Positions 8,357-52,294 of a stretch of DNA of 64,000 bases are shown piece by piece. The number at the start of each line of letters is the position of its first letter. Position 1 is the first letter of the stretch. Location: positions 2,617 to 66,616 of the forward strand of contig DATBLJ010000018.1 of the NCBI GenBank assembly GCA_036555375.1. Reading direction: 5' to 3'. The translations under genes were made by a program, and so were the position numbers. This DNA comes from Candidatus Limnocylindria bacterium (GTDB lineage: Bacteria > Chloroflexota > Limnocylindria > QHBO01). The notes under the pieces are model-generated. The model saw only the letters and a list, made by a program, of their open reading frames with translations, was not told the DNA's origin and did no database searches.

Positions 8357-8554
8357 CTATGGCGCGAACTCCTGGAACCCGCCGACTCGCTCGACGACCC
8401 AGTTGCTGGCCGGCTGGTCCTGGGGGATCGGGGCCGGGGACATCAGCGCGCCGATCGCGACGGCGGCGCCGAGGATGAGGATCGTCAGCGCGCCCACCAG
8501 GGTTGCCAGGACCTGGGGACTCGTGCTGCTGGCAGGGAGGGTGGTGGTCGTCAT
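8357..8554 (-). CDS. small single-TM membrane protein (65 aa), hypothetical
   Basis: Very high GC3 in frame; one hydrophobic helix (LATLVGALTILILGAAVAIGAL); GGAG 6 nt upstream of ATG; followed on the minus strand by the 8259-8286 terminator with a U-tract. Confidence 0.5.
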   Translation of the reverse strand: MTTTTLPASSTSPQVLATLVGALTILILGAAVAIGALMSPAPIPQDQPASNWVVERVGGFQEFAP

Positions 8555-8659
8555 CGGTCTGGTCTCCGGTGGGTGACTTGAATGCCCCGGAGGATGCGGC
8601 CGGCGACGAATGGACCGATATCGGCCGCCGGACGACGGGCCTGTCCGATCGCTGACAGG

Positions 8660-10996
8660 TCAGGCGCTGAGCGCGCTCTCCCAGCTCTCGGCCATCGCCT
8701 CGGGCACCGCATCGGCCGGTAGCGGCGGCGAGAAGTGGTACCCCTGTCCCAGCCGGCAGCCGAGCTCGCGGAGGCGAACGACCTGGTCGCCTCGCTCGAT
8801 GCCCTCGGCGAGGACCTGGAGTCGAAGCGTCTGGCCGAGCTTGATGATCGAGCGCAGGAGGACCGGCACCTCACGGTCGTCTCCGAGGGACGCGGTGAAC
8901 GACCGGTCGATCTTCAGCAGGTCGACCGGCAACCGCTCGAGGTAGCTCAGCGAGGAGTAGCCGGTTCCGAAGTCGTCCATCGCCAGCTGGACGCCGATGC
9001 CGCGCAGCTTCTGGAGCGTCTCCTCGGTGTCGGCGACGTCGGCCATCAACGTGCTCTCGGTGAGCTCGAGGACGAGCCGATGCGGATCGAGCGCGGCCTC
9101 CTCGAGGGCAAGGCTGACGGTCTCGACCAGCCGCGGATCGGCCAGCTGGCGGGGCGAGACGTTGACGCTCACCACCGGCCGGTGGCCGTTCGTGCCGGGC
9201 AGCGCCTTCGTCTGGTCCCAGGCGGCCATCTGGCGACACGCTTCCGCGGCGACCCAGGCGCCGAGCGGGACGATGAGGCCGGTCTCCTCAGCCGCTGGAA
9301 TGAACTCGGCAGGTTCGATCAGGCCGCGCTCCGGGTGCCGCCACCGGACGAGCGCCTCGAGGCCCGCCAGGCGGCCGTTGCGGAGGTCGACGAACGGCTG
9401 GTAATGGAGGACGAAGTCGCCGCGACTGATCGCGTGCTCGAGCTCGGTCCGCAGCTCCTGGCGGCGGATCACGGCCAGGTGCATCCGTGGCTCGAAGAAT
9501 TCGATGCGGCCCTTGCCGCGTGCCTTGGCGGTGTACATCGCCAGGTCGGCGTGGCGGAGGAGGTCGTCGGCGGACGTCCCGGTCTGGGTGATCGCCACGC
9601 CGGCGCTGCCGCGGGCGAACACCTGCTTGCCCTGCAGGTCGAACGGGGACCGGAGGGCGGCCAGCACCCGCTCTGCGACGCGCCGGGCGGCCTCCCGGGT
9701 CGTCTCCTCGAGGAGGATCGCGAACTCGTCGCCGCCGAACCGGGCGACCGTGTCCTCGGGACGCATCACGCCGCGCAGCCGCTCGGCGACGGCGGTCAGC
9801 AGCTGGTCGCCCGCCGCATGGCCCAGCGAGTCGTTGACCGTCTTGAAGTCGTCCAGGTCGAGGAACACGACCGCCAGCGCGCGACGCGCACGCTGCCGGG
9901 CCATCGCATGGGCCAGCCGGTCGGCGAACAGCGCCCGGTTGGCGAGGCCGGTCAACGAGTCGTGGAACGCCTGGTGCTGGAGCTGGCGCTCGAGCTCCTT
10001 GCGGAGCGTGATGTCGTGGACGAGCGCCGAGAAGCTGACCGAGTCGCCGCTGCCGACCGCCCAGATGGTGAGCTCGACCGGAAACTCGCGGCCGTCGCGA
10101 TGGAGGGCGTTGATCTCGAGTCGCGTGCCAAGCACCGGCCCCTCCCCGGTCTCCAGGAAGCGGGCAATGCCCTGCCGATGCGCGTCGCGTTGGGCCAGGG
10201 GGACGATCCGGTCGGCCAGCGGCTTGCCGAGGATCTCCTCCCGGGACCAGCCGAACGTCTGCTCGGCGGCCTGGTTCCAGTCGGTGACCGTCCCCTCGCG
10301 GCTCATCCCGATGTACGCGTAGCTCGCGGTGTCGATGATCCGGCGGGTCTGCTCCTCGCTCTGGCGGAGCGCGTGCTCGGCGTCCTTCTGGCCGGTGATG
10401 TCGATGATGTAGCCCCGGAAGAAGGACGGGATGCCGTGCTCGTCGGCGATGATCACCGCCTCGTCGCGGATCCAGACCACCCGCCCGTCGCGGGACAGCA
10501 TCCGGTACTCGCTCGCGCTCACCACGCCCGGTTCGCGGCTCCAGTCCTCGTCTTCCTCCTGCTGGACTCGGGCGCGGTCGTCGGGGTGGATCTGGCGCAT
10601 CCAGAGGCCCGGATCGGCCATCCATTCCCCGGCGGAGAACCCGAGCAGGATCTCGATCCGGGGGCTCACGTAGTTCCAGGTCGCCTCCGGCCCGAAGCCC
10701 GCGATGTACAGGGCGGCCGGCAGCCGCTCGACGAGGGCGCGGAAGGTGCCCTCCTCGGTCTCCAGCCCGGCGAGGCGGGCGCCGGCGCGGTTGGCCGCGG
10801 TCACACGGGCCCACAGCATCACGCCCTGGGCGGCGGCCAGCATCACGAGGACGGCCGTGATCGCGCTCGTGAGCATGAACTGGCGTGGCTGGGTCCAGCT
10901 GGCCAGGAGCACGAGGATCGCGACGCCGACCGAGGACACCAGGATGAAGCCAGGCAGGAGGCGTTCGACCTGCCGGCGCAGCCGTCCCATCGACAT
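8660..10996 (-). CDS. membrane-anchored PAS/PAS-GGDEF-EAL signalling protein (diguanylate cyclase/phosphodiesterase)
   Basis: 778 aa. N-terminal TM helices, two PAS-like segments, GGDEF ([11 protein letters not shown]) and EAL (LEALVRW … [10 protein letters not shown]) motifs. Confidence 0.9.
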
Positions 10997-11090
10997 CCCC
11001 GCGACCGTAGTCCCACCCGTTCGCGGCGACGATGGGCCAATGGTCCGGTCTTGATTGCGAGCGTCACGCCGAGCCGACTAGACTCCGCGC

Positions 11091-11621
11091 GTGACCGTGA
11101 CCTCGGCCGACGACCTGCGGAAGCTCATCCGCGAGGTTCCCGACTTCCCGAAGCCGGGCATCCTGTTCTATGACATCACGACCCTCCTGAAGGATCCGGA
11201 CGCCTTCCGCGAGGTCATCGACCGGATGGTCGAGCAGGTCAAGGGGACCGAGATCGACGTCGTCGTCGGCATGGAGTCGCGCGGGTTCATCTTCAGCGCC
11301 CCGATCGCCTACAAGCTCGGGGCGGGGTTCGTCCCGGTCCGCAAGCTCGGGAAGCTCCCCTCGGAGACGATCGAAGTCGAGTACGCCCTCGAGTACGGGA
11401 CCGCGACGCTCGAGATCCATCGCGACGCGATCGCGTCCGGCCAGCGCGTGCTGATCGTCGACGACCTGCTGGCCACCGGCGGGACGGTGATGGGCACCAT
11501 CGAGCTCGTCCAGCGGCTCGGCGGGGTCGTGGCCGGCCTCTCGTTCATGGTCGAGCTCAGCGCCCTCCACGGGCGCGAGGAGCTGTCCCAGTTCTCGATC
11601 CACGCGTTGCTCACCTACTGA
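11091..11621 (+). CDS. apt: adenine phosphoribosyltransferase
   Basis: 176 aa; [27 protein letters not shown] motif [13 protein letters not shown]. Confidence 0.9.
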
Positions 11622-11643
11622 CCGATCGGCGGCCGGGCGACCG

Positions 11644-12501
11644 ATGACCACGGCCACCGCCACGGCCTGGCAGACGCGGGAAGTGGTCGACCGCGAGGAG
11701 GTCGCCGCGTTCCTGCGGACCGACCGGCTGTATGCCGCCTATGCGCTCGGCGACATCGACGTCTCGTCCCGCAAGCGGGCCGCCTGGGGGATGGCCTACC
11801 TGGACGGCCAGCCACGCGGCCTCGCGATGCAGCACCTCGGCCTGCCGCCCCAGCCGCTGTTCCTGATGGGCGACGTCGACGCCTGCCGGGCCGTTCTTGC
11901 CAGCCAGGTCCGGCCGCGCTACGCCTTCGTCCAGGCCCGCCACGACTTGGCGCCCGCCTTCAACGAGCTGTACAGGGTCGATCTGCCCGCGTCCCTGCTC
12001 CGGATGGTTGTCGACCGGGCGACCTTCCGGCCGATCGCCGGCGGCGCCGAGCGGCTCGGCCCGCCGGATATCGGTGACCTGAACCGCCTCTACCAGCTCG
12101 GCCTGGGCGGCGGATTCCCGGCCTCGATCCTCGAAGACGGCGTCTATTACGGCGTTCGGGTCGGCGGCCGCCTGGTGGCCGCCGCTGGCACCCACGTCAT
12201 CAACGAGGCCGAGGGCATCGCGGTCGTCGGCAACGTCCTGACCCACGTCGACCATCGCGGCCAGGGCCACGCCAAGGCGGTGACCGCCGGCGTGACCGCG
12301 GAGCTCCTGACCCGTGTGCCCGACGTCGCCCTGAACGTGTACGCCGACAATGACCCCGCCGTGGCCGCCTACGCGCGGCTCGGCTATCGTGAGTACTGCC
12401 GCCTCGGGGAGTGGGTCGCCTACCGGCGAGCCGGAGGCTGGGATTTCATTCGTCCGCTGCGCGCCGCGCTCCGCTGGAGTTGGCCGCGCGCCGACCGTTG
12501 A
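11644..12501 (+). CDS. GNAT family acetyltransferase (FR47-like C-terminal domain)
   Basis: 285 aa; C-terminal GNAT core ([32 protein letters not shown]…YARLGYREY). Confidence 0.65.
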
Positions 12502-12511
12502 TGGAGGAACC

Positions 12512-13765
12512 GTGAGCGACATTCGTGACGAGGGACTGGCCGACGACGGTGCGCGGCGCATCGAGTGGGCGGACCGCCAGATGCCGGTGCTGGCCGGCAT
12601 CCGGGATCGGCTCAGCCAGGAGAAGCCGCTCACCGGTTGGCGGGTCAGCGCCTGCCTCCACGTCACGGCCGAGACGGCGAACCTGGTCCGCACCCTGGCG
12701 GCCGCCGGGGCGGACGTCGTCCTCTGCGCCTCGAATCCGCTGTCGACCCAGGACGAGGTCGCCGCGGCGCTCGTCGTCGACCATGGGATCGAGGTCTTCG
12801 CCATGCGCGGCGAGGACCGCGACACGTACTACGGCCACATCAACGCGGCCCTCGACCACCAGCCCCAGCTGACGATGGACGACGGATCCGACCTCGTCGG
12901 GGAGCTCCACACCCATCGGTCCGACCTCCTCCCCGAGGTCCGCGGGGGGACCGAGGAGACGACGACCGGGGTCATCCGGCTGCGGGCGATGGCCGCCGAT
13001 GGCGCGCTCCGCTACCCAATCCTCGCCGTCAACGAGGCCGCCACCAAGCACCTGTTCGACAACCGCTACGGCACCGGCCAGAGCGCGATCGACGGCATCC
13101 TGCGCGCCACGAACGTGCTGCTCGCCGGCAAGACGGTCGTGGTCGGGGGCTACGGCTGGGTCGGGCGGGGGATCGCATCACGCGCCCACGGAATGGGCGC
13201 CAACGTCGTCATCGTCGAGATCGACCCGATCCGGGCACTCGAGGCGGCGATGGACGGCTTCCGGGTCATGACCTCGATGGAGGCGGCCGAGGCGGGGGAC
13301 CTGTTCATCACCGCCACCGGCTCACTCCACGTCTTCGGTCGCGATCACTTCCGGATCATGCGCGACGGGGCGATCCTGGCCAACGCGGGCCACTTCAACG
13401 ACGAGTTCGACCTGCCCGGTCTCGAGGACCTGTCCGCCGAGACGCGCGAGGTCCGCCCGTCGACGCAGGAGTACCGGCTGGCGGACGGCCGGCGGATCTA
13501 CCTGCTGGCCGAGGGACGGCTCGTCAACCTCGCCGCCGCGGAGGGCCATCCGAGCCTGGTCATGGACCTCTCGTTCGCCAACCAGGCCCTCGGCGTCGAG
13601 TGGCTGAGCCAGCACCACGACGAGCTGACGCCGGCGGTGTACGAGATCCCGCTCGAGATCGACCACGAGGTCGCCCGCCTGAAGCTGGCGACGATGGGCA
13701 TCGCGATCGATCGGCCCACCCCCGAGCAGGAGGCGTATGCCGCCTCCTGGCAGTCGGGTACGTGA
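12512..13765 (+). CDS. ahcY: adenosylhomocysteinase
   Basis: GTG 12512 preceded by GGAGGA. AhcY signatures ([17 protein letters not shown]-binding GYGWVGRG, …[15 protein letters not shown]…). The annotated ORF's first 54 codons overlap the upstream gene and are rejected. Confidence 0.9.
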
Positions 13766-13797
13766 GCGCCGAAACGGCGCTCGGCTAGGGCGTTGGC

Positions 13798-14349
13798 CTA
13801 GATATCGACGTCGAAGGACCCGCTGATGTCGAGGTCCGAATGGATGACGCCGTCGGTTCCGAAGCCACCGGCGTCGTTGCAGGTGAAGCTGCCGGCGGCG
13901 CCCGAGGCGTCGTTGTGGTCGATGTTCCAGTCGCACTCGGCGGTCGGGATGACCATGTCGTCGGTGACGTACTGGAAGACGTTCCCGTCTTCGCTCAGCA
14001 GGAGGATGACGCCGTTGGCCTCCTGGGCATCGGTGTCCTCGGTGAACACGAGGAAGGTGACGCCCGCCTGCTGGAAGTAGGCGAAGTTGCCGGCGAACGG
14101 CAGCTCGCCGCTGTCGTTGAAGCCGCCGCCGCTGATCTCGTACTGGACCGAGCCCGACCCGCCGCCGAGCCCACCATCGCCGTCCCCGCCACCATCGCCG
14201 TCCCCGCCGCCCTGGCTGGACTCGGGCGCCTCGGACTGGTCCCCGCCGCCCCCATCGGATCCGTCGGGTGAGCCGGCTGGGCTCGCGCAGGCGGCCAGTA
14301 TCAGGCCGGAGATGACAACCAGGACCCAGAGGATTGGGCGGCGGCGCAT
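13798..14349 (-). CDS. secreted lipoprotein with Gly/Asp-rich low-complexity region, hypothetical
   Basis: Signal peptide plus lipobox (MRRRPILWVLVVISGLILAAC). SD AGGAGG 6 nt before ATG. Tandem 18-nt repeat encodes GDGDGG. Confidence 0.7.
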   Translation of the reverse strand: MRRRPILWVLVVISGLILAACASPAGSPDGSDGGGGDQSEAPESSQGGGDGDGGGDGDGGLGGGSGSVQYEISGGGFNDSGELPFAGNFAYFQQAGVTFLVFTEDTDAQEANGVILLLSEDGNVFQYVTDDMVIPTAECDWNIDHNDASGAAGSFTCNDAGGFGTDGVIHSDLDISGSFDVDI

Positions 14350-14407
14350 GATGGACCTCCTATAGGAAGCGCCATCCTAGCCGGTCGGCGATGGCTCCCG
14401 TCAATTC

Positions 14408-20600: not shown

Positions 20601-20614
20601 CATCGGCCGACCAA

Positions 20615-20745
<131 letters not shown>

Positions 20746-20780
20746 GTCTCCACCCTCGTGAGAAAGGGCGTGACATCACC

Positions 20781-21755
20781 ATGGCGTCATCGCGTTTCCG
20801 GTTTCTCGTTCCCCTGATCCTGGCCTTGGCCACCGCGTGCCAGCCGTCGGCCAGCGCCAGCCCCTCCCCGAGCACCGCGTCGAGCGTTGCGCCGAGTGCC
20901 AGCGCCGCCGCCGAGGTCTCCTATCCACAGACCCTGACCGACGATGCCGGGCGCCAGGTCGAGATCCCGGCCGAGCCCGAGCGGATCGTCAGCCTCGCCC
21001 CGTCCAACACCGAGATCGTCTGCGCCCTGGACGCCTGTGACCGCCTCGTCGGGGTCACCGATTTCGACGACTACCCGGCGGAGGTGGCCGATGTCGCCCA
21101 CGTCGTCATCGGCGCGGTGGTCGACGTCGAGCTCGTCGTCGAGGCGGATCCGGATCTCATCATCGCGGCCGGCAACGAGCTGACCCCGACCGCGGTGATC
21201 GACCAGCTGGCCGAGCTCGACTACCCGGTGCTCGTCCTGTACCCCGAGTCGCTCGAGGCCGTGCTCGACAACGTCGAGCTGGTCGGGACCGCGATCAACG
21301 CGACCGATGCGGCGACCGCGGTCACCGGCGACATGACCCAGCGGATCGCCGCGGTTCGCGAGGCGGTGGCCGGCGAGCCGGCTCCGCGCACGTTCTACGA
21401 GGTCGGCCTGTTCGAAGGCGCGATCTACACCGCCGGCGAGGACTCGTTCCTGGCCGGCATGATCGACACGGCCGGCGGCGAGCCGATCACCGGCGACCCG
21501 CTGACCACGTCGATCGCCCTCGAGGACCTCGTGGCGGCCGATCCCGAGCTCATCCTGCTCGGGGACGCGGCCTACGATCCGTCGATCACCCCCGAATCGG
21601 TGGCCGTCCGGCCGGGCTGGGAGGGGATGACCGCGGTCACCACCGGCAACGTCCTGGTCATGGCCGAGGACCCGGTCATCACCCGCCCCGGCCCGCGGAT
21701 CGTCGACGGACTCGAGGCGATGGCCGCGGCCATCCACCCCGACGCCTTCGACTGA
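20781..21755 (+). CDS. ABC transporter substrate-binding lipoprotein (cobalamin/siderophore class, BtuF-like)
   Basis: Signal peptide plus lipobox (LILALATAC). Class III periplasmic binding protein pattern. Downstream of the B12 riboswitch. Confidence 0.8.
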   Translation: MASSRFRFLVPLILALATACQPSASASPSPSTASSVAPSASAAAEVSYPQTLTDDAGRQVEIPAEPERIVSLAPSNTEIVCALDACDRLVGVTDFDDYPAEVADVAHVVIGAVVDVELVVEADPDLIIAAGNELTPTAVIDQLAELDYPVLVLYPESLEAVLDNVELVGTAINATDAATAVTGDMTQRIAAVREAVAGEPAPRTFYEVGLFEGAIYTAGEDSFLAGMIDTAGGEPITGDPLTTSIALEDLVAADPELILLGDAAYDPSITPESVAVRPGWEGMTAVTTGNVLVMAEDPVITRPGPRIVDGLEAMAAAIHPDAFD

Positions 21756-40818: not shown

Positions 40819-42330
40819 ATGGCGCTGACCCGGAAGCCGGAGACGAAGCCCGCCGCCGCCTCGTGGGGCATGGCGGCGCGGAAGATCCCCTGGGAGTACG
40901 CGGCCGCCCCCGAGTCGACCGATCACGTCCGGATCGAGTCCGAGTACGGGCTGTTCATCGACAACGCGTTCCGCTCGTCGCGCCCGAAGGCCACGTTCGA
41001 CGTCATCAACCCCGCCACCGAGGAGGTCCTCGCCCGGGTGGCCCGTGCCTCGAAGGCTGACGTCAACCGGGCGGTGAGCGCCGCGCGCCGGGCCCACGAC
41101 ACGGTCTGGTCCCGCATGCCGGGCAGCGAGCGAGCGAAGTACCTCTACCGGATCGCCCGGATCATGCAGGAGCGGGCCCGCGAGTTCGCGGTGGTCGAGA
41201 CGATGAACAGCGGCAAGCCGATCAAGGAGAGCCGCGACGTCGACGTCCCGCTGGCGGCGGCCCACTTCTTCTACTACGCCGGCTGGGCCGACAAGCTCGA
41301 GTACGCGTTCCCGAACCGGCGCCCCTCGTCGCTGGGGGTCGCCGCCCAGGTCATCCCCTGGAACTTCCCGCTCCTGATGCTGGCCTGGAAGATCGCCCCG
41401 GCGCTGGCCTGCGGCAACACGGTCGTCCTCAAGCCCGCCTCCACGACCCCGCTGACCGCGTACCTGTTCGCCGACGTCGTGCGCCAGGCGGAGCTCCCGC
41501 CGGGGGTGGTGAACATCATCACCGGTCCGGGCGAGATCGGGATGGAGCTCGTCCGCCACCCGGAGGTCGACAAGGTCGCCTTCACCGGCTCGACCGCGGT
41601 TGGCAAGCTCATCGCCCGCGCCGTGGCCGGTACCCACAAGAAGGTGACCCTCGAGCTCGGCGGCAAGGCCGCGAACATCGTGTTCGACGACGCTCCGATC
41701 GACCAGGCGATCGAGGGGATCATCAACGGCATCTACTTCAACCAGGGCGAGGTGTGCTGCGCCGGCTCGCGGCTGTTCGTCCAGGAGTCGGTCTACGAGC
41801 CCCTCCTCGACAAGCTCAAGGACCGCCTGTCCACGCTCCGGGTCGGTGACCCGCTCGACAAGAACACCGATGTCGGGGCGATCAACTCGGCCGGCCAGCT
41901 GGCGAAGATCGCCGAGCTGGTCGAGGCCGGCATCGCCGAGGGGGCCGAGATCTTCCAGCCCGACTGCGAGCTGCCAACCCGCGGCTTCTTCTTCCGCCCC
42001 ACGCTGTTCACCGGCGTCTCGCAGAGCCATCGGATCGCCCAGGAGGAGATCTTCGGACCCGTCCTGTCGGTGCTGACTTTCCGCACCCCGGAGGAGGCGG
42101 TCGAGAAGGCGAACAACACCCCGTATGGCCTGTCGGCCGGGGTGTGGACCGAGAAGGGGAGCCGGATCTTCAAGATGGTCGGCGCCATGAAGGCCGGCGT
42201 CGTGTGGGCCAACACCTTCAACCGGTTCGACCCCACGTCGCCGTTCGGCGGTTACAAGGAGTCCGGCTACGGCCGCGAGGGCGGGCTCCATGGCCTGGCC
42301 GCCTACCTGCGCCTGGACGGGGCCGCCTGA
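40819..42330 (+). CDS. aldehyde dehydrogenase family protein (full length)
   Basis: 503 aa; ALDH motifs (VIPWNFPLLMLAWKIAPALACGNTVVLKPA, catalytic ELGGKA…, GQ-CCAGSRLFV). Confidence 0.9.
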   Translation: MALTRKPETKPAAASWGMAARKIPWEYAAAPESTDHVRIESEYGLFIDNAFRSSRPKATFDVINPATEEVLARVARASKADVNRAVSAARRAHDTVWSRMPGSERAKYLYRIARIMQERAREFAVVETMNSGKPIKESRDVDVPLAAAHFFYYAGWADKLEYAFPNRRPSSLGVAAQVIPWNFPLLMLAWKIAPALACGNTVVLKPASTTPLTAYLFADVVRQAELPPGVVNIITGPGEIGMELVRHPEVDKVAFTGSTAVGKLIARAVAGTHKKVTLELGGKAANIVFDDAPIDQAIEGIINGIYFNQGEVCCAGSRLFVQESVYEPLLDKLKDRLSTLRVGDPLDKNTDVGAINSAGQLAKIAELVEAGIAEGAEIFQPDCELPTRGFFFRPTLFTGVSQSHRIAQEEIFGPVLSVLTFRTPEEAVEKANNTPYGLSAGVWTEKGSRIFKMVGAMKAGVVWANTFNRFDPTSPFGGYKESGYGREGGLHGLAAYLRLDGAA

Positions 42331-42333
42331 CCG

Positions 42334-43338
42334 ATGGCCACCGCCCGCCGCAACCAGGTCCGTCGCCCGACCACCGCCAAGCGGCGAGCCAGCCGCTCAC
42401 CGCTGCTGGAGGCCCGCGCCGCCGCGCCGCTGGCGCTTCGCAACGGCACCGCCGAGGCGGGGGAGCGACTCGGGGTGCGGAAGACCTACAAACTGTTCAT
42501 CGGTGGCGAGTTCCCACGGACGGAGTCCGGCCGCTCGTACCTCGTCCACGACGCCACGGGCCGGCTGCTCGCCAACGCGTGCCGCGGGACGCGGAAGGAC
42601 ATCCGCGACGCGGTGCGCGCCGCGCGCAAGGTCCAGCCCGAATGGGCGGCGCGGTCCGCCTTCAACCGGAGCCAGATCCTGTACCGGATCGCCGAGCTCA
42701 CGGAGGGGCGTCGTGACCAGTTCGTCGCCGAGGTCCGCGCGGCCGAGGGGGTCGGTCTCCAGCGGGCGCGCCGCCTGGTGGACGCGGCCATCGACCGATG
42801 GGTGTGGTACGCCGGCTGGGCCGACAAGTTTCCGCAGATCCTCGGCAACGTGAACCCGGTCGCCGGCTCGTACTTCAACTTCTCGATTCCCGAGCCGACC
42901 GGCGTGGTCGGGATCGTGGCCGCCGAGGACTCGTCGCTGCTCGGGCTGGTGAGCCGGCTGGCGCCGGTCATCGTGTCGGGGAATGCGGCCGTCGTCCTGA
43001 CCAGCGAGTCACGTCCCCTGCCGGCCATCACCCTGGCCGAGGTCCTCGCCACGTCCGACGTCCCGGGTGGAGTCGTGAACGTCATCACCGGCCTGCGCCG
43101 GGAGCTCGTCCCGCACCTGGCGGCCCACATGGACGTCAACGCGCTCGACGGGTTCGGTCTCGAGCCGGCGTCGGTCGCGGCGGTCGAGGACGCGGCCACC
43201 GAGAACGTGAAGCGTTTCGCCCGCCCGCCGAACGGCGGGCTGACCGGCTACGACTGGCTGTCCGAACAAGCCCAGTCGCCGTACCTGATTGGTGAGTTCC
43301 TCGAGATCAAGACCGTCTGGCACCCGATCGGCGTCTGA
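42334..43338 (+). CDS. truncated aldehyde-dehydrogenase-like protein (N-terminal/NAD-binding half only; catalytic Cys/Glu region absent)
   Basis: 334 aa; aligns to ALDH residues about 1-300 (…YKLFIGGEF…, …PTGVVGIVAAEDSSLLGLV…AAVVLTSE…GGVVNVITG…). Lacks the PWNFP and catalytic-domain motifs. Confidence 0.6.
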   Translation: MATARRNQVRRPTTAKRRASRSPLLEARAAAPLALRNGTAEAGERLGVRKTYKLFIGGEFPRTESGRSYLVHDATGRLLANACRGTRKDIRDAVRAARKVQPEWAARSAFNRSQILYRIAELTEGRRDQFVAEVRAAEGVGLQRARRLVDAAIDRWVWYAGWADKFPQILGNVNPVAGSYFNFSIPEPTGVVGIVAAEDSSLLGLVSRLAPVIVSGNAAVVLTSESRPLPAITLAEVLATSDVPGGVVNVITGLRRELVPHLAAHMDVNALDGFGLEPASVAAVEDAATENVKRFARPPNGGLTGYDWLSEQAQSPYLIGEFLEIKTVWHPIGV

Positions 43339-45967: not shown

Positions 45968-47728
45968 ATGGCCGCCATGCCTCGCCCCCGTTCCATCCGC
46001 CGGTCCGACACCGACGGCCTGTCCAACGCCGAGCTCGCGGCCACCTTCCGCGAGATCGGGGACATGCTCGAGCTGCTCGGCGAGGTGCCGTACAAGGCGG
46101 TCGCCTACCGGCGCGCGGCGGATGCCATCGAACGCTACCCGGCCGACCTCGTGCCGCTCATCGAGGCGGGCCGGATGCCGAAGATCGCCGGCGTCGGGGC
46201 GGCGATCGGCGCGCGGCTGACCGAGCTCGCGACGACCGGCAGGCTCGAGTACCACGAGCGGCTCCGCGAGCAGGTCCCGCCGGGCCTGGTCGGCGTGCTC
46301 CGGATCGGCGGGGTCGGCCCCCGGACCGCCCGCCAGCTCCACCTCGAGCTGGGCGTGACCTCGATCGACGAGCTGCGCGAGGCCGCCGAGATGGGCCGCA
46401 TCCGCGAGGTGTCGGGGATGTCGGCACGGACCGAGCAGAACATCCTGGCCGGCATCGCACGGCTCGACCAGCAGTCCGACCAGCGCCTGCTCCTTCACGA
46501 GGCGGATCGGCTTGCGAACGAGCTCATCGCGGGCCTCCGGGATGTGACCGGGGTCGAGCGCCTGGCCGCGGCCGGATCGCTCCGGCGCCGGCGGACGACG
46601 ATCGGCGACCTCGACCTGCTGGCCGCCACCACCGACCCGGCGGCGCTGATCGGTGCCTTCCAGGAGCTCGCCGCCGTCGAGCGGGTCATCGCCTCGGGGG
46701 CCGACAAGGCGAGCGTCGTCCTCGCCGCCGACGGGAAGCGCCAGGTCGACCTCATGGTCTGCCGGCCGGAGGCGTGGGGGACCCACCTCGTCCACTTCAC
46801 CGGGAGCAAGGAGCACAACGTCGCGCTCCGCGAGCGGGCGCTCGATCGTGGCCTGTCGCTCAGCGAGAAGGGGTTCCGCGTCGTCGAGACGGGAGAGCTG
46901 CTGCTCGACGCCGACGAGGAGGCGGTCTACGCCCGCCTCGACCTGCCGTGGATTCCGCCCGAGCTCCGCGAGGGCGAGGGCGAGATGGCGGCCGCGATCG
47001 CCGGCACGCTGCCGCGGCTCGTCGAGCTGGACGACGTGCGCGGCGACACCCACACCCACTCCGACTGGACCGATGGCGTGGACACGATCGAGACGATGGC
47101 CCGCGCCGCTCGCGACCGCGGACTGGGCTACATGGTGCTCACCGACCATTCCCCGTCGCTGGGGGTCACCCGGGGACTGACCCCCGACCGGATCGCCGAG
47201 CAGAAGGTCGAGCTCGACCGGCTGAACAGTGAGCTCGCTCCGTTCCGGATCCTGCATGGGACGGAGATGGAGATCCGAGCCGACGGCGCGCTCGACTACC
47301 CCGATGAGCTGCTCGCCCGGTTCGACGTCGTCGTGGCCTCGATCCACGTCGGCCGCAGCCAGCCGACCGAGCAGCTCACCCGACGCTGCCTGGCGGCGAT
47401 CGAGAACCCGAACGTCGACATCATCGCCCACCCGACCGGGCGCATCGTGAACCGCCGCGACCCGGTGTCGTTCGACTGGCCGCAGGTGTTCGAAGCTGCG
47501 GCCCGGACCGGGACCCGGCTCGAGATCAACGGCAGCCCGCGGCTCGACCTCGACGAGCGGCTGGCCCGCGACGCGGCCCAGGCCGGGGTGCAGCTCACCC
47601 TCGCCAGCGACGCACATCGGACGGAGGAGCTCGAGTACCTGGACTACGCGGTCGGCGTCGCCCGGCGGGCGTGGCTCGAGCCGGGCCAGATCGCGAACAC
47701 GGCCGGCGTGGAGGGGTGGAGCCGATGA
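45968..47728 (+). CDS. polX: DNA polymerase X family protein with C-terminal PHP phosphoesterase domain
   Basis: 586 aa; N-terminal HhH/8-kDa domain; palm (…GSLRRRRTTIGDLDLL…); PHP domain (HTHSDWTDG…, VLTDHS, …SDAH…). Confidence 0.9.
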   Translation: MAAMPRPRSIRRSDTDGLSNAELAATFREIGDMLELLGEVPYKAVAYRRAADAIERYPADLVPLIEAGRMPKIAGVGAAIGARLTELATTGRLEYHERLREQVPPGLVGVLRIGGVGPRTARQLHLELGVTSIDELREAAEMGRIREVSGMSARTEQNILAGIARLDQQSDQRLLLHEADRLANELIAGLRDVTGVERLAAAGSLRRRRTTIGDLDLLAATTDPAALIGAFQELAAVERVIASGADKASVVLAADGKRQVDLMVCRPEAWGTHLVHFTGSKEHNVALRERALDRGLSLSEKGFRVVETGELLLDADEEAVYARLDLPWIPPELREGEGEMAAAIAGTLPRLVELDDVRGDTHTHSDWTDGVDTIETMARAARDRGLGYMVLTDHSPSLGVTRGLTPDRIAEQKVELDRLNSELAPFRILHGTEMEIRADGALDYPDELLARFDVVVASIHVGRSQPTEQLTRRCLAAIENPNVDIIAHPTGRIVNRRDPVSFDWPQVFEAAARTGTRLEINGSPRLDLDERLARDAAQAGVQLTLASDAHRTEELEYLDYAVGVARRAWLEPGQIANTAGVEGWSR

Positions 47729-48513
47729 GCGCCCTGGCCGACACCCGCCGCCGGCTGCGCGCCGGGCGGGTGCAGGGCGCCCGGGCCGTGCGGCGGGCGG
47801 GACCGATCGGTCTCCCGCTGCTCATGGCGGCCCTGGTGGCCGCCGGCTGGGTCGTCGACCTGGTGGCCCTCGCCGCGGTGCTCGCCCTGGAGCTCGCGAT
47901 CGCGGGCCTCGGCACAGCCGCCCTGCTTGGGGCGGCCCGTCCATCGGCCGGCTACGCGCGGTACGCGATCCTCGCGACCAGCGCGGTGTCGGTCACCCTC
48001 CTCGGGCGCCATCTGCCGCCCGGGATCGGCCCGCTGGCCGCCCCGCTGGCCTGGGCATTCCTGTTCTGGGTCCTGTACATCGAGCGCCATGGGCCGGACA
48101 TGCCCGGCTACCGGCTGTCGCTGGACCTGACCCTCGTCCTGAGCGTGTTCGCCGCCACCGCCGGCATGGCCGACCTGCTGCCCACCGAGCTGTGGCTCCT
48201 GTCACTCATCCTGTTCGCGGCGCTGGTTGCCGTCCCGTGCCTGCGCTCGGCGGAGGCCCGTGGCGCGGTTGGCGTGACCGCCGTCGGCCACTCCCTGCTC
48301 CACCTGCTCGTCGTGCTCCAGGTCGCGCTGGCGATGACCCTGCTCGAGCTTCCGCAGCCGGTTGGGCCGGCCCTGGTGGCGCTCACCTTCCATTCGTGGA
48401 GCGGCGCCGCCGATGCGCTCGAGTCGGGCGTTCCGACCCGCGCGGTGATCCTCGAGTACGGGTCGCTGGCCGCCATCGGCGCCATCGTCGCCCTCTTCCT
48501 CAGCGGAGCCTGA
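47725..48513 (+). CDS. polytopic membrane protein, hypothetical
   Basis: ATG overlaps the polX stop (ATGA). About 7 hydrophobic helices; 262 aa. Confidence 0.55.
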   Translation: MSALADTRRRLRAGRVQGARAVRRAGPIGLPLLMAALVAAGWVVDLVALAAVLALELAIAGLGTAALLGAARPSAGYARYAILATSAVSVTLLGRHLPPGIGPLAAPLAWAFLFWVLYIERHGPDMPGYRLSLDLTLVLSVFAATAGMADLLPTELWLLSLILFAALVAVPCLRSAEARGAVGVTAVGHSLLHLLVVLQVALAMTLLELPQPVGPALVALTFHSWSGAADALESGVPTRAVILEYGSLAAIGAIVALFLSGA

Positions 48514-48641
48514 GCCGGACGCGCAGGCTTCGTTGACAGCCCGCTCGGGCAGGTGCTACAAACTGCTGCCCTCCGACGGTTCCGCCACGCCGTGCGGCGC
48601 CGTTCGCCCACTCATCACGCCGCGGGGAGAGTCGCGCGACC

Positions 48642-49466
48642 ATGACCGCCGGGGATTCTGACGCCAACATCCGCGAGCGCCGCCAGCTTGCCGAGATCGC
48701 GGTTGCCCAGGCTGCCCGCGGGGAGTGGGAGGCGGCCGCCGAGACGAACCGCCAGCTAATCGAGCTGGGCGCCGACGTCGACGCCTACAACCGCCTCGGC
48801 AAGGCGCTGGCCGAGCTCGACCAGCTGACCGATGCGCTGGAGGCCTACCAGAAGGCCTTCGAGCTCGATCGGCTGAACCGAATCGCGGAGCGGAACATCG
48901 AGCGGCTCGAGGCGCTGATCACGTCCGACACGACCCGCGGCGAGAAGCACGCGACCCGCGCGCCGGCCGCCCTGTTCATCGAGGAGATGGGCAAGACCGG
49001 CAGCGCGCGGCTGATCAACCTGGCGCCGGCCAAACATCTCGCCCCGCTGTCGGCCGGCGACGCGATCGAGCTCAAGGCGAGCGACGGCGAGCTCGAGGCC
49101 CGCGTCCGGGGGATCAAGGTCGGGCAGGTCGAGCCGCGCGTCGCGAACCGCCTGCTCGAGCTGATGACCAACGGCAACCGCTACGAGGCCGCCCTGACCC
49201 ACGTCGACGATGAGGACCTCCGGCTCATCATCCGCGAGACCTTCGCCCATCCCTCGAACTTTGGACGCGTGTCGTTCCCGGGCGCCGCGTCGGGTCGCAG
49301 CGGTGACGTTCGGCCGTACATGAAGGGCAGTGCCCTCCGCTACGATGACGACGAAGAGTCGGAGGAGGTCGAAGAGGAGCCGGAAGAGGTCGAGGAGCTC
49401 GACACGTCTCTGCCGGAGCTCTCGACCGAGCCCGACGAAGAAGAGGAACTGCTCGACGAGACGTAG
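48642..49466 (+). CDS. TPR-repeat protein with acidic C-terminal tail, hypothetical
   Basis: SD GGGAGA. TPR-like N-terminus (…AYNRLGKALAELDQLTDALEAYQKAFELD…). C-terminal DDDEESEEVEEEPEEVEELD…DEEEELLDET. 274 aa. Confidence 0.65.
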   Translation: MTAGDSDANIRERRQLAEIAVAQAARGEWEAAAETNRQLIELGADVDAYNRLGKALAELDQLTDALEAYQKAFELDRLNRIAERNIERLEALITSDTTRGEKHATRAPAALFIEEMGKTGSARLINLAPAKHLAPLSAGDAIELKASDGELEARVRGIKVGQVEPRVANRLLELMTNGNRYEAALTHVDDEDLRLIIRETFAHPSNFGRVSFPGAASGRSGDVRPYMKGSALRYDDDEESEEVEEEPEEVEELDTSLPELSTEPDEEEELLDET

Positions 49467-49471
49467 CCACC

Positions 49472-52294
49472 ATGACCGAGGCCGAACGGAAGAGACTGGA
49501 CCACGTCGTCCTTCCGCGGCGGCTTCCCGGCCTGGCGCTGCTCGAGCGCTACTTCCCCTCTCCGGCCGATAACGTCCTCGACGCCGAGCTCGCCTCGTTC
49601 GCGAGCGCCGGTGACACGATCCTCGACCCCTGGTCGGGCACCGGCTGGACCGCGCGCCGGGCCGTGGCGCACGGGATGCGGGTGGTCGCCGCCGAGGCGA
49701 GCCCGTTCGCCCAGATGGCGGCCCAGGCCTTTCTCCTTGCACCCGAGGTCGCGGCGGTGGACGCCGCGTTCGCCCAGCTCGGCTCCTCGCGACGGGTCGA
49801 CATTCCGCTTCGGCAGCACGTCGAGGAGCTCTATGCGTCGCGCTGCCCGAACTGCAACCGGCCAGTCGTCGTCGAGGAGTTCATCTGGCCCCGGGACGGG
49901 GACGCGCCGGGCCGCAAGGTCTACCGCTGCACCGCGTGCGACATCTCGGTCGGCGGCCCCGACGAGCGGGTCGCCCCGGTCGACGAGGCCGACTACGCCA
50001 AGCTCGGCCTCGAGCCGCCGCCACCCGCCCCCGAGGCGCCCGCCATCGAGCCGGCGGCCGATGCCGACGAGGACCTGCCGCCGGCCCCGTTCGGCCTGAT
50101 TGGCGACCCCCTGCCCACCGAGGAGGCGCCGCTCGCCCCGCTGGGGGAGCCCGGCGGTCCACCGCCCCCGCCCGCGCGACCGGCCGACCCGCCGGTGGCC
50201 CTCGGCGCCGAGGAGGGCCCGCGCTTCGCGTCGACCGTCCGCCCGACCCCGATTCCGGCACCGGTCGGGACCGATGTCCGGCAGGGACTCGCCTACCAGC
50301 AGCTCCAGGAACGCTTCCCGGTCCTCGACGAGCGGCGCGACGTCGTCGACGAGGTCCTCGACCTGTACACCTCGCGGAACCTGTACGCCCTCCAGGCGAT
50401 CGCCAACAAGATCGACGCCGAGTTCCACGACCAGCCGATGGCCGCCGTCTTCCGCCTCGCGCTGGCGGGCTGCCTGCTCCCGGCCAGCCGGCTGAACGGC
50501 TACCCGGGGCGGGTCGCCTCGCTCCGGATCGCGGGCGGTCACGTCCGCCAGCCCGCGTCCCGCCACCACCGCGAGGTGAACGTCTGGCGCCTCTTCGAGG
50601 CCGCCTACCAGGACGTGCGCACCGCGCTGACGGCGCTCGGGCGGGATCGGCGGCCGGTCCGCTTTGCCGCCGACCTCGGCGAGCTCGGCGGCATGGGCGC
50701 GGCCAACCTGCTGTGGATCCGCTGCCGACCGGCGGTCGTCGGCCAGTACCTCCCGCCCGACGGGGTCGATCTCGTCATCGGCGCGCCGCCGCCGCCCGAG
50801 AGCGTCGACGAGCTCTCGTTCGAGTACCTCGCCACCGCGTGGCTGCTCGGCCGGGAGGCGGCCGAAACGCTCCGCCTCGAGCCCCTGTTCGGGGGCGCGT
50901 CCCGCGCCGACGGGGCCGAGGTGACCGCCTTCCGCCATGCGATGGCCTCGGCCGCCGGGGCCCTGAAGCCGGGCGGCTGGTTCACGGTCCTGCTCGAAGG
51001 CGACGACCCGGATCGTGTGCTGGCGGTGGCGATGGCCGCTGCCGGCGCCGAGCTCGAGCTCGTCGACGCCATTCCGCGCGAGTCGGCCCGCTCCGGGGAC
51101 GGGGTGACGCTCCACTTCCGCCGCGCGTCGGCCGAGGACCGGCTGCGGGACGCGGTGCGGGCCAAGCCGCTCCGCCTGGGCGCGACCGATGGCCACCTGA
51201 CGTATCCCGAGCTCGCGGGCGCCATCGAGCGGGCGACGGCGTCACTCCTGCGGGAGCGCGGCGAGCCGGCCGGGCTGACCCGGATCGCGTGCGCCGTCCT
51301 CCTCGAGCTCGAGCGGAGCGGCCTGCTGCGGCGGCTCGTCCAGGCCCGGCCGGCGGACGAGGACGCCGAAGTGGGGGAGGAGTCGGTCGTCACCGATCGG
51401 GTCGAGCGCGGCGGTCCGGCCCTGCTCGCCGTCCTGCTGCGCGAGGAGCTGTGGCGCGAGGACCATCCGAGCCTCATCCGGGTCGGCGACCCGCAGCGTC
51501 CCACTTGGTGGCTGCGCGAGCCGGAGCTGGCCGCCGACGGGACGATCGGTGACCGGGTCGAATGGGCGACCTTCTCGCTCCTCACGACCGCCGGCCAGCT
51601 CGACGAGACCGCGTTCCTCGATCGCGTGTTCGCGTTGTTCCCGGGCATCTCGTCCCCGGACGAGGAGCTCGTCCGGGCCTGCCTCGCCGCCTACGCCACG
51701 GTGGGGGACCGCGGCGAGCTCCGGTCCGAGGAGGACCTGGCGACCCGGATCGCGGACCACACTCGGGTCCTGGCCGCGATCGTCGAGTTCGGGCACCGGC
51801 TCGGGCTGCGGGCCTGGGTCAGCCGTCGCGAGCAGGAGCGACCGTGGCAGCAGGGGACCCTCGGCGACCTCCTGAAGGAGGACGAGCGGCGGACCTACCT
51901 CCCGCTCGTCATCCGCGCCCCGGCCGACGTGCTCGGCGCGGTCGACGGCCTGTGGTACGTGCGGAACCGGTCGAGCTACCTCTTCGAGGTCGAATGGACC
52001 GCGATGGTCGGAGAGGCGGTGCTCCGCCGAGGCAGCCAGATTCCGACTTCGGACCAGCAGGCCCGCTTCCTCGTCATCCCCGCCGAGCGCGCCGAGCTGC
52101 TCCGGCTCAAGCTGGCCCGCTCGCCGTGGCTCCGGACCGAGGTCGAGCGCCAGAACTGGCACGTCCTGAAGTGGCCACACCTGGAGGCCCTGATTGGCCG
52201 TGAAGGGGCCCGGATCGAGTGGCTGGAGCCGATGATCGGGCTCGATCCACTCGTGGAGCGCGGGGGCAAGCAGCTGACGATGTTCGGCGAGTGA
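49472..52294 (+). CDS. large multidomain protein: amino-methyltransferase-like fold with an inserted Cys4 zinc ribbon and Pro-rich linker, a degenerate catalytic motif, and an unassigned about 450-aa C-terminal region
   Basis: 940 aa, high GC3. SAM motif I ILDPWSGTGWTARRAV with the following acidic VVAAEASPF. CPNC-x18-CTAC zinc ribbon. Pro-rich spacer. DLVIGAPPPP in place of (D/N/S)PP(Y/F/W), then LKPGGWFTVLL. The C-terminal half has a VDGLW…YLFEVEW PD-(D/E)xK-like pattern with Trp in the Lys position. Confidence 0.7.
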   Translation: MTEAERKRLDHVVLPRRLPGLALLERYFPSPADNVLDAELASFASAGDTILDPWSGTGWTARRAVAHGMRVVAAEASPFAQMAAQAFLLAPEVAAVDAAFAQLGSSRRVDIPLRQHVEELYASRCPNCNRPVVVEEFIWPRDGDAPGRKVYRCTACDISVGGPDERVAPVDEADYAKLGLEPPPPAPEAPAIEPAADADEDLPPAPFGLIGDPLPTEEAPLAPLGEPGGPPPPPARPADPPVALGAEEGPRFASTVRPTPIPAPVGTDVRQGLAYQQLQERFPVLDERRDVVDEVLDLYTSRNLYALQAIANKIDAEFHDQPMAAVFRLALAGCLLPASRLNGYPGRVASLRIAGGHVRQPASRHHREVNVWRLFEAAYQDVRTALTALGRDRRPVRFAADLGELGGMGAANLLWIRCRPAVVGQYLPPDGVDLVIGAPPPPESVDELSFEYLATAWLLGREAAETLRLEPLFGGASRADGAEVTAFRHAMASAAGALKPGGWFTVLLEGDDPDRVLAVAMAAAGAELELVDAIPRESARSGDGVTLHFRRASAEDRLRDAVRAKPLRLGATDGHLTYPELAGAIERATASLLRERGEPAGLTRIACAVLLELERSGLLRRLVQARPADEDAEVGEESVVTDRVERGGPALLAVLLREELWREDHPSLIRVGDPQRPTWWLREPELAADGTIGDRVEWATFSLLTTAGQLDETAFLDRVFALFPGISSPDEELVRACLAAYATVGDRGELRSEEDLATRIADHTRVLAAIVEFGHRLGLRAWVSRREQERPWQQGTLGDLLKEDERRTYLPLVIRAPADVLGAVDGLWYVRNRSSYLFEVEWTAMVGEAVLRRGSQIPTSDQQARFLVIPAERAELLRLKLARSPWLRTEVERQNWHVLKWPHLEALIGREGARIEWLEPMIGLDPLVERGGKQLTMFGE

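Follow-up and report, generated by a model that had tools for sequence, protein, structure and literature searches.

A Limnocylindria protein with a conserved SAM pocket, a decayed methyl-transfer motif, a nuclease-like domain and a clamp-binding-type tail

What is the role of a protein whose N-terminal half resembles a DNA methyltransferase and whose C-terminal half resembles a restriction nuclease, when its methyl-transfer motif has decayed and its gene is kept among housekeeping genes? This question is raised by a 940-residue open reading frame in a 64,000-nucleotide stretch of DNA from Candidatus Limnocylindria bacterium, the whole of which is called the window below. The reading frame is real: it opens with ATG, and its GC3 of 0.93 is like that of the real genes of this window with 72% GC. 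The features discussed here are collected in Table 1. Conservation was counted over 75 species-level Limnocylindria orthologues, and the structure was modelled with AlphaFold from a 101-sequence alignment (pLDDT 87.5, against 52 for an earlier model made from 28 close orthologues).

Table 1. Position and basis of the features of the gene and its neighbourhood (coordinates of the window; res, residues of the 940-residue protein).
Feature	Coordinates	Strand	Basis
polX (45968-47728), with a membrane-protein gene overlapping it (47725-48513); both syntenic with the gene pair	45968..48513	+	Pfam PolX and PHP matches
Upstream partner gene: TPR, middle domain and conserved acidic tail (EEVEELDTSLPE..)	48642..49466	+	Pfam TPR matches
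Whole gene, from a family of methylase / winged-helix / nuclease-like fusions; very probably methylase-dead	49472..52294	+	ORF, codon bias, homologues, AlphaFold
SAM-binding motifs I (DPWSGTG, res 52-58) and II (acidic E75)	49619..49705	+	Conservation, methylase alignments
Cys4 zinc ribbon (C125, C128, C153, C156), inserted after motif II	49832..49981	+	Conservation; model strands
Disordered Pro-rich linker (res ~181-270), Limnocylindria-specific	50012..50281	+	pLDDT, alignment
Strand with E368-x-N370-x-W372 (motif III region by our own assignment)	50567..50587	+	Conservation
Decayed motif IV: VDLVIGAPPPPE replacing xDxVFTDPPYG (res 432-443)	50765..50800	+	Translation, alignments
Two helix-rich winged-helix-like modules (res ~578-745)	51203..51706	+	Model secondary-structure order, conservation
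PD-(D/E)xK-like domain; candidate site E772, E787, D825, E839, E841	51719..52246	+	NmeDI_C on orthologues, model, conservation
Beta-clamp-binding-type peptide KQLTMFGE on a flexible tail	52268..52291	+	Motif count, low-pLDDT tail

A vertically inherited member of an uncharacterised family

The protein had been described in an earlier note, made from the sequence of the window, as chimeric, with an orphan C-terminal domain and no place in a known family. The first two points of this description had to be given up, as the protein has 505 close homologues and belongs to a large family of 1595 clusters (at 50% identity) spread across Chloroflexota, the whole architecture recurring in more than 1500 protein clusters, and the C-terminal domain already has a Pfam name, NmeDI_C. 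The last part stands: no characterised family takes in the whole protein. Its family is uncharacterised, with "hypothetical" as the sole annotation, and a literature search for a description of it found none. When the protein itself was scanned against Pfam, NCBIfam and PADLOC, nothing but sub-threshold matches to motif I came up; PADLOC returned no system match, only the generic MTase_II and mad2 models on this motif (res 36-104, E ≥ 9e-6). When the alignment of diverse relatives was used as a profile against a set of 5.8 billion proteins, only Limnocylindria were matched, and the best 80 loci of a contig-level profile scan were likewise all Limnocylindria.

The family also has uncharacterised relatives of about 820 residues in which the methylase is intact, the named ones being DPANN archaea. 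These intact relatives match N6_N4_Mtase at 1e-20, also carry NmeDI_C, and share with the window protein, at an identity of 21-24%, the full-length domain order including the zinc ribbon and the ExNxW, RGEP, DRVE and D..ExE motifs. Unlike the window protein, they have kept DPFxGSG and DPPY, have neither the Pro-rich linker nor the TPR partner, and are found in varying genomic contexts. A tie between them and a Hel308-like helicase was considered and dropped, since the helicase gene was present at two loci and absent at two others.

The tight linkage to a TPR/acidic-tail gene pointed out earlier, whose TAG stop lies 5 nt ahead of the ATG, turned out to be general when co-occurrence was followed across genomes: the distance from TPR stop to downstream start is 1-9 nt in 72 of 73 species, the acidic tail is conserved, and a TPR orthologue also adjoins a relative that is only 37% identical. 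The two genes are translationally coupled. Small genes also stand beside the relatives in other clades; they are homologous neither to each other nor to the TPR partner, and no universal partner gene for the family exists. A scan of the + strand near the gene pair for promoters and terminators found none; by eye, a candidate promoter-like pattern, TTGACA...TACAAACT, was seen at ~48533-48565.

As had been stated, polX lies upstream. The synteny of the pair with polX extends over about 70 species and to one distant clade and is absent from two other clades. Inside the class unrelated flanking genes share this synteny, so that only its recurrence in the distant clade makes it strong evidence. Across species, identity to the window protein tracks that of PolX (r=0.92; 70.1 versus 70.4%), and the neighbours of the gene are housekeeping genes, without a defence island. 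We conclude that the gene is vertically inherited among housekeeping genes, and the suggestion of a defence-like fusion, taken as a mobile system, does not agree with a synteny that is fixed among such genes and a divergence in step with PolX.

A methyltransferase fold with a kept SAM pocket and a decayed motif IV

The N-terminal half has an N6/N4-type class I methyltransferase fold. The family profile matched the beta-class DNA methylases 2zie (1.4e-9), M.RsrI (1.2e-8), an N4C methylase (2e-6) and M.MboIIA (4e-5); 16 of 32 relatives match Pfam N6_N4_Mtase, on which the window protein itself reaches 11.2 bits, below the Pfam cut-off of 26.7, and the best viral match is a Pandoravirus N4C DNA methylase. 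The amino-methyltransferase architecture proposed in the earlier note, with motif I (res 52-58) ahead of motif IV (res 437-442), was recovered; this order is permuted with respect to N6_N4_Mtase, where IV precedes I. With the beta-class enzymes (N6_N4_Mtase: M.RsrI, TTHA0409, M.MboIIA, CcrM) the window protein has in common the class I fold, a pre-motif-I helix, a DPFxGSG-like motif I and the acidic residue of motif II, and two more strands can be aligned as well, the one that precedes motif IV and the later LxPGG strand. It differs from them in having motif I first, in the insertion of a zinc ribbon and some 300 residues, and in the disappearance of the catalytic (D/N/S)PP(Y/F/W).

The residues expected to line the SAM pocket are well kept. 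Motif I reads ILDPWSGTGW (res 50-59), aligns with motif I of M.RsrI, TTHA0409 and N4C methylases, and the strand after it closes with E75, in accordance with the intact motif and trailing acidic residue noticed previously; D52, P53, W54, G56 and G58 are unchanged in 75/75 orthologues, and position 75 is always D or E. E368-x-N370-x-W372 is equally unchanged in the 75 orthologues and near-invariant throughout the family, archaeal relatives included. Motifs I and II and the ExNxW strand are under strong purifying selection. The LKPGGWF motif that had been placed after motif IV was found at residues 498-504.

Between motifs I and IV lie, as previously described, a zinc ribbon and a Pro-rich linker. 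The four cysteines of the ribbon (CPNC...CTAC) are invariant in 32 diverse relatives and present as CCCC in nearly all of the 101 sequences, and the region forms beta strands at 122-169 in the AlphaFold model. The linker is predicted to be disordered (pLDDT <50 for 199-259) and has no counterpart in other clades; it carries two short motifs, LGExGxPP in 75/75 and [DE]LPPAPxGL in 62/75 orthologues.

It had been proposed that GAPPPP replaces the catalytic (D/N/S)PP(Y/F/W), with the reservation that this segment might not be equivalent to motif IV. Equivalence follows from two alignments: the family profile, which reads "lvltqPPpp" at this site, is paired there with LVVTSPPYW in TTHA0409 and with the corresponding stretch of M.RsrI, and the same columns hold FTDPPYG in the intact relatives, so that GAPPPP falls on their DPPY. 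NPPY is retained by none of the orthologues; the loop is variable, contains an aromatic residue in 0/75 orthologues and never shows a D/N/S-P-P-aromatic arrangement. Orthologues of 70% identity have GSIAHP, GSVTDA, GMPSVA or TAIGPP instead, positions 438-445 belong to the structured sites that vary most in the 75 orthologues (76th-91st percentile), and of 79 family representatives only 2 have motif IV intact. Motif IV, the methyl-transfer loop, has decayed and is drifting freely. Judged from this degeneration, methyl transfer has very probably been lost, which agrees with the earlier suspicion that it was lost or altered.

The C-terminal half and its tail

Downstream of the methyltransferase fold, the two winged-helix-like modules contain conserved RGEP, WWL, DRVE and FPGxxxP motifs, and R596, E598, P599, R695, E697 and P729 are kept from archaeal relatives to the window protein; a winged-helix Pfam match was obtained in one relative and was weak. 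The following domain, in which a PD-(D/E)xK-reminiscent segment had been noticed, looks PD-(D/E)xK-like insofar as the high-confidence model shows a fitting alpha-beta-beta-beta-alpha-beta order (helix 756-776, strands 780-783, 826-830 and 834-840, helix 847-856, strand 863-869) and PF27126 (NmeDI_C) is recorded on 94%-identical orthologues and on relatives. This Pfam domain is shared with the type II restriction endonuclease R.NmeDI, a 351-aa stand-alone nuclease with separate methylases (PMC2095814). Searched by itself as a profile, the C-terminal domain matched no solved structure and no Pfam family in the set searched, and solved nucleases appeared neither in the C-terminal sequence search nor among the whole-chain fold matches listed, where methylase matches concealed those of the C-terminal domain.

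The candidate active site is carried by the segment AVDGLWYVRNRSSYLFEVEW (res 823-842), whose register is D825...E839-x-E841, the two glutamates being alternate residues that end strand 834-840, followed by W842. The tryptophan formerly read where lysine is expected was the result of a register error, since W842 is not at the lysine position and comes after E839-x-E841; in the conserved D825...E839-V-E841 it is glutamate that stands in place of the canonical lysine. D825 is found in 75/75 orthologues, D or E in 75/75 at position 839 and in 74/75 at position 841, and D825, E839 and E841 are invariant in a 29-sequence alignment of archaea and Chloroflexota. This acidic triad is under strong purifying selection. 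We take its arrangement to be BamHI-like (D..ExE), a variant that can be active, as in BamHI.

A C-terminal peptide of beta-clamp-binding type, absent from the earlier note, is in our view the most informative feature of the gene. The window protein ends in QLTMF on a tail of low pLDDT, and Q[LIVM]x[LIVM][FLWY] occurs in the last 16 residues of 75/75 orthologues and of 48/65 other Chloroflexota-type relatives, with a chance expectation of ~0.001 per tail. By match to the published consensus QL(S/D)LF, QLTMF is a motif of the bacterial beta-clamp-binding type, such tails being characteristic of factors for replication and repair (PMC9690074), although it is read here from the sequence and short C-terminal motifs may mislead as clamp ligands. 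A PIP box (PCNA) instead of QLxLF ends 49 of 118 intact relatives, and the clamp handle appears to be swapped between archaeal and bacterial forms. The same switch has been functionally proven for EndoMS/NucS, whose peptide, needed for activity, is a PIP box in the archaeal enzymes and a motif of the beta-clamp type, [EK]-[LY]-[TR]-L-F, in the bacterial ones (PMC6159515). EndoMS/NucS also resembles the proposed logic of the window protein in joining a base-flipping sensor, a restriction-enzyme-like nuclease and a C-terminal clamp peptide, but NucS has only ~230 residues and lacks a methylase fold, a zinc ribbon and a SAM pocket, and the likeness would be one of mode of action and not of kinship.

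Readings of the fusion

Although the methyl-transfer motif is gone, the protein still carries SAM pocket, nuclease-like site and clamp tail, and from this we conclude that DNA at the replication fork is its probable target. We give about even chances to the more specific reading that the protein descends from a fusion of DNA amino-methyltransferase and nuclease in a single chain and has been domesticated, being methylase-dead, SAM-binding and clamp-tethered, with a putative DNA endonuclease or sensor role; the degenerate restriction-modification fusion or SAM-binding protein imagined in the earlier note fits this reading. Methylation would have been lost, SAM or SAH would be bound as a cofactor or signal, and the DnaN sliding clamp would load the protein onto DNA. 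The dead methylase domain could then serve as a base-flipping DNA sensor and the C-terminal site could nick or cut DNA in replication-coupled repair or quality control, with a cutting logic like that of NucS/EndoMS or MutH; a part as regulator or adaptor could fall to the TPR/acidic-tail protein. Type IIG/IIL enzymes (MmeI, BpuSI) likewise hold a methylase and a PD-(D/E)xK nuclease in one chain, and in MmeI, a single-chain restriction enzyme, SAM is required for cleavage (PMC2582602, PMC3185434). These enzymes are mobile; their nuclease stands at the N-terminus and a recognition domain at the C-terminus, and their methylase is active and of the gamma class (NPPY), whereas the window protein has its nuclease-like domain at the C-terminus, a dead methylase without gamma-class NPPY and the position of a fixed core gene; it shows neither an active host-protecting methylase nor a patchy mobile distribution (synteny in ~70 species).

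If the domesticated-fusion reading is true, a restriction-modification-type fusion was captured by its host and rewired into chromosome maintenance, shedding its methyl-transfer chemistry and retaining the SAM pocket, the nuclease-like site and the clamp handle. A family abundant in soil and freshwater Limnocylindria would gain a testable function, and the protein may partly explain genome maintenance in Chloroflexota/Limnocylindria lineages. It is unlikely, if conceivable, that the protein and its TPR/acidic-tail partner make up an entire new Chloroflexota pathway of replication-coupled repair or quality control, in which the dead amino-methyltransferase domain, turned into a SAM-gated sensor that flips bases and detects lesions or mismatches, would be recruited by the clamp and drive a restriction-type nuclease, parallel to MutH/MutL and NucS and of independent origin, with PolX filling the gap.

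A still active methyltransferase with a non-canonical catalytic loop would agree with the intact SAM-binding motifs and with the two prolines left at the motif IV position of the window protein, but an active site would stay fixed, and this loop varies between 70%-identical orthologues without ever presenting D/N/S-P-P-aromatic; we regard such activity as highly improbable. As little credit can be given to an action on RNA, as a relic of a tRNA/rRNA amino-methylase turned RNA-binding or processing factor: the best profile matches are all DNA methylases, Pfam scans found no THUMP or other RNA-binding domain, and the restriction-nuclease-type C-terminus together with the clamp/PCNA-binding tails suggests DNA. 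For the THUMP-type m2G tRNA methylases (Trm11/TrmN/Trm14) in particular, both the THUMP domain and a DPPY-type motif are absent. An active two-gene defence formed by the TPR protein and the nuclease, for example Type IV-like or SAM-dependent restriction with the dead methylase reading foreign marks, is suggested by the restriction-modification-like ancestry, by the layout of the pair as a nuclease with a small acidic partner and by the variable contexts of intact relatives, one between carA and carB and one beside an AAA_15/AAA_21 ATPase. It is made very unlikely by the fixed housekeeping position in every species examined, the co-divergence with PolX, the lack of a defence island or of a PADLOC system match, and a tail of the kind borne by replication and repair factors (PMC9690074).

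The remaining alternative is a double pseudoenzyme, a non-catalytic clamp-associated DNA-binding protein or scaffold that would organise or regulate other factors (the TPR protein, PolX) on DNA, its acidic residues and SAM motifs being structural or ligand-sensing. About 40% of the family representatives (31/79) are without SAM motifs and acidic triad yet full length, and many of these still carry the C-terminal clamp motif QLxLF; since such members persist, the core role of the family may not need catalysis. Moreover, family-wide conservation is dispersed: it concerns residues of the zinc ribbon and of the winged-helix-like modules as well as structural positions. In the 75 orthologues, however, triad and SAM motifs stay invariant while motif IV drifts, and across the 79 representatives their retention is correlated, GxG, the motif II acidic residue and an acidic tetrad being kept together in 25 sequences and lost together in 31. 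These observations point to a retained chemical function in the window protein, and we consider the double pseudoenzyme rather unlikely here. The family forms a natural series of fully active, methylase-dead and fully degenerate members that should be useful for the study of pseudoenzyme evolution.

Descent from a DNA amino-methylase fusion

The gene under study encodes 940 amino acids with a third-position GC of 0.93, typical of real genes in the 72% GC window, and all the sequence features named in the earlier note were found again in its product. Direct scans of the window protein gave nothing beyond sub-threshold or generic matches on motif I (Pfam N6_N4_Mtase, E 0.34; PADLOC MTase_II, 9e-6; M.RsrI in a PDB sequence search, 6e-4). 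The protein is not the orphan it had been taken for: its close homologues number 505, full-length identity does not fall below 67% among the best 120 of them, and an exhaustive profile search collected 1595 clusters (50% identity) at E ≤ 1e-3, including 942 at E ≤ 1e-10. Many clusters are full-length (750-985 aa, 25-40% identity); the named ones among the distant representatives looked up are all Chloroflexota. Many members are tagged in Pfam as PF27126, NmeDI_C, the C-terminal domain of R.NmeDI, a type II restriction endonuclease (PMC2095814). The family profile matched beta-class DNA amino-methylases (TTHA0409, 1.4e-9; M.RsrI, 1.2e-8; N4C methylase, 2e-6; M.MboIIA, 4e-5; CcrM and PvuII more weakly). 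In secondary pieces of these alignments the family's 'LrPdGrlvll' falls on LvPGGrLviv and its 'lvltqPPpp' on LVVTSPPYW; because of the latter, GAPPPP is the structural equivalent of motif IV, as the earlier note had assumed.

Two family sequences, P0215 and P0226, are members of another large group, made up of ~820-aa proteins that carry DPFxGSG, FTDPPYG and EFEVENT, score 1e-20 for N6_N4_Mtase and also contain NmeDI_C; its named members come from DPANN archaea. These intact relatives align with the window protein over its full length, and the residues invariant between them and it include C125, C153, R302, E368, N370, R596, R695, E697, H763, D825, W828, E839, E841, R873 and W896. We conclude that the window protein descends from a DNA amino-methylase/NmeDI_C fusion. 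The genomic context of the intact relatives varies by locus. At L096 the two genes of carbamoyl-phosphate synthase, carA (small subunit) and carB (large subunit), flank an 824-aa relative of the DPPY type together with a 200-aa unknown gene, an arrangement that looks like a mobile gene pair inserted into an operon; at L089, P0226 adjoins a 154-aa gene and an AAA_15/AAA_21 ATPase gene, of a kind common in defence systems. No description of this architecture was found in the literature or curated families: the parts are of known kinds, and their combination, domestication and exchange of clamp handle are new.

Features of the window, of the 940-aa protein and of related loci outside the window
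Feature	Position	Basis or content
Mfd/TRCF gene	119-2635 (+)	window start
Cobalamin riboswitch	20612-20753 (+)	Rfam RF00174, 56 bits
Periplasmic-binding-protein gene	20781-21755	Pfam Peripla_BP_2
Aldehyde dehydrogenase gene and 334-aa ORF	40819-43338 (+)	
polX	45968-47728 (+)	
Membrane-protein gene	47725-48513 (+)	multi-pass, ~260 aa
Promoter-like pattern	48533-48565 (+)	TTGACA + spacer + TACAAACT, by eye
TPR gene	48642-49466 (+)	acidic tail at 49340-49466
940-aa gene	49472-52294 (+)	
Motif I		sequence: ILDPWSGTGW, then E75
Methylase N-half	strands 49-52, 70-74	AlphaFold
Zinc ribbon	res 122-169	AlphaFold; sequence: CPNC...CTAC
Pro-rich linker	after zinc ribbon	sequence
Disordered linker	res 199-259	AlphaFold, pLDDT <50
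Helical insert	between linker and next strand	AlphaFold
Strand with E368-x-N370-x-W372	after helical insert	AlphaFold
Motif IV strand	432-437	AlphaFold; remaining methylase strands follow to ~551
Expected motif IV position		sequence: VDLVIGAPPPPE
LKPGGWF motif		sequence
Two helix-helix-helix-hairpin modules	~578-745	AlphaFold
Alpha-beta-beta-beta-alpha-beta domain	res 756-900	AlphaFold
Segment of C-terminal nuclease-like region		sequence: AVDGLWYVRNRSSYLFEVEW
L096, intact relative and 200-aa gene	6872-14395	
L089, P0226 and neighbours	5921-10427	
L090, DinB_2-family gene	6981-7877 (-)	

Site conservation and predicted fold

We translated and aligned 75 orthologues, one genome per species. Residues D52, P53, W54, G56 and G58 of motif I are invariant, as are E368, N370, W372 and D825; position 75 is D or E throughout, and D/E occupies position 839 in 75/75 and position 841 in 74/75. 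By variability, motif IV positions 438-445 rank in the 76th-91st percentile of all structured positions, the loop reading GSIAHP, GSVTDA, GMPSVA or TAIGPP in different orthologues. Orthologues with an intact catalytic motif IV, which the earlier note had proposed to look for, were sought and none was found among those aligned (D/N/S-P-P-aromatic in 0 of 75). The methyl-transfer loop of the window protein has decayed, and its SAM-pocket motifs, acidic triad and clamp-binding-type tail are conserved. Among 79 family sequences covering both the motif I and triad regions, the glycine loop, motif II acidic residue and acidic tetrad are all kept in 25 and all lost in 31, and motif IV is intact only in P0215 and P0226.

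The AlphaFold model (input alignment of 101 diverse sequences) reached a pLDDT of 87.5 and a pTM of 0.85. Its two hairpin modules are read as winged-helix-like. In the C-terminal domain D825 is placed just ahead of the second strand, with E839 and E841 in alternate positions where the third strand ends; the predicted geometry is that of a PD-(D/E)xK site with Glu at the Lys position, a variant known from BamHI. The 'Trp where Lys is expected' noticed earlier was a register error, since W842 comes after the motif. Whole-chain fold searches listed class I methylases only (Trm11, TrmM, TTHA0409 and CcrM with Foldseek), with no solved nuclease among the matches listed; the best viral match was a Pandoravirus N4C DNA methylase. 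A search with the C-terminal domain alone found nothing of similar sequence in the PDB or the local Pfam library.

Clamp-binding-type tail and proposed role

The protein ends in ...GGKQLTMFGE, on a low-confidence tail. The loose beta-clamp-type pattern Q[LIVM]x[LIVM][FLWY] occurs within the last 16 residues of all 75 Limnocylindria orthologues (in the strict form QLx[LM]F in 66/75). Of the remaining Chloroflexota-type relatives, 48 of 65 share this loose pattern (QLPLF, QIPLF or QLSLF), and 49 of 118 intact relatives terminate in a canonical PIP box, for example QNSLNLYL; from background density, about 0.001-0.005 such patterns per tail are expected by chance. The bacterial beta-clamp consensus, also C-terminal, is QL(S/D)LF and the PCNA motif Qxx[I/L]xxFF (PMC9690074). 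In EndoMS/NucS the archaeal proteins have a PIP motif and the actinobacterial ones [EK]-[LY]-[TR]-L-F, and both beta-clamp binding and mutation avoidance depend on the last five residues (PMC6159515); the present family shows the same switch between PIP and beta-clamp motifs. This tail is the strongest functional clue, and from such sequence patterns we infer that the family works on DNA, touching the sliding clamp.

For the window protein we infer the following functional steps: DnaN would recruit it, it would bind SAM or SAH without methyl transfer, the dead methylase domain would serve as a base-flipping DNA sensor, the C-terminal site would nick or cut DNA in replication-coupled repair, and the TPR protein would act as regulator. 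SAM is a cleavage cofactor of MmeI (PMC2582602). The proposed way of working is similar to that of NucS and MutH, with no kinship implied. The rival reading is a fully non-catalytic, clamp-bound scaffold, in favour of which clades without any catalytic motif exist. A still-active methylase and an RNA-directed role both fit poorly; so does an active defence pair, and no defence island was found in the window surroundings.

Vertical inheritance and the TPR partner

By its named homologues the window belongs to the class Limnocylindria of the Chloroflexota. The setting is core chromosome, with genes for Mfd, aconitase, aldehyde dehydrogenase, MgtE, PolX, CsoR, a DsbH-like thioredoxin protein, adenosine deaminase and an Mrp/ParA Fe-S protein. 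The succession of polX, membrane-protein gene, TPR gene and 940-aa gene recurs at nearly every Limnocylindria locus reaching far enough upstream. The position of polX upstream and the tight linkage of the TPR gene, whose stop lies 5 nt ahead of the start codon, are as first described, and the linkage extends across genomes (adjacent, with a gap of 1-9 nt, in 72/73 species). Identity to the window for the 940-aa gene correlates with that for PolX (r=0.92; means 70.1 and 70.4%) and for the TPR gene (r=0.94). In another Chloroflexota clade, a 37%-identical relative is likewise preceded by PolX and by an orthologue of the TPR/acidic-tail gene (50% identity), the remaining flanking genes differing from those of the window; in two more distant clades the PolX/TPR neighbours are absent. 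The 940-aa gene is a vertically inherited core gene, tightly coupled to the TPR/acidic-tail gene.

Across 73 species the TPR protein keeps its acidic tail, EEVEELDT[ST]LPE[FYL]S.EP...EEL.EE, as a specific sequence, beyond mere composition. The linker of the 940-aa protein contains LGExGxPP in all 75 orthologues and [DE]LPPAPxGL in 62 of them.

Several minor observations were made. The EEVEEL stretch resembles the EEVD peptides that TPR clamps bind and could mediate self-binding or partner binding. In the clade of the 37%-identical relative (L090), the TPR gene and the homologue are separated by an inserted DinB_2-family gene of opposite orientation. The membrane-protein gene and the polX stop codon overlap (ATGA); synteny of the two genes holds in ~70 species, but the membrane-protein gene evolves fast (mean 49% identity), and its product has no Pfam family match. 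The promoter-like pattern falls within the 128-nt spacer ahead of the TPR gene and was not reported by a consensus promoter scan; if real, it would give the TPR and 940-aa genes their own promoter. Only 4 nt after the end of the full-length aldehyde dehydrogenase gene (503 aa) comes the 334-aa ORF, whose match to the Aldedh profile is confined to its first half (positions 11-232 of 461) and which may be a truncated duplicate or pseudogene. The Mfd ORF (838 aa) may be 5'-truncated through start-codon choice. The cobalamin riboswitch lies directly upstream of the Peripla_BP_2 gene, together looking like a B12-regulated uptake operon.
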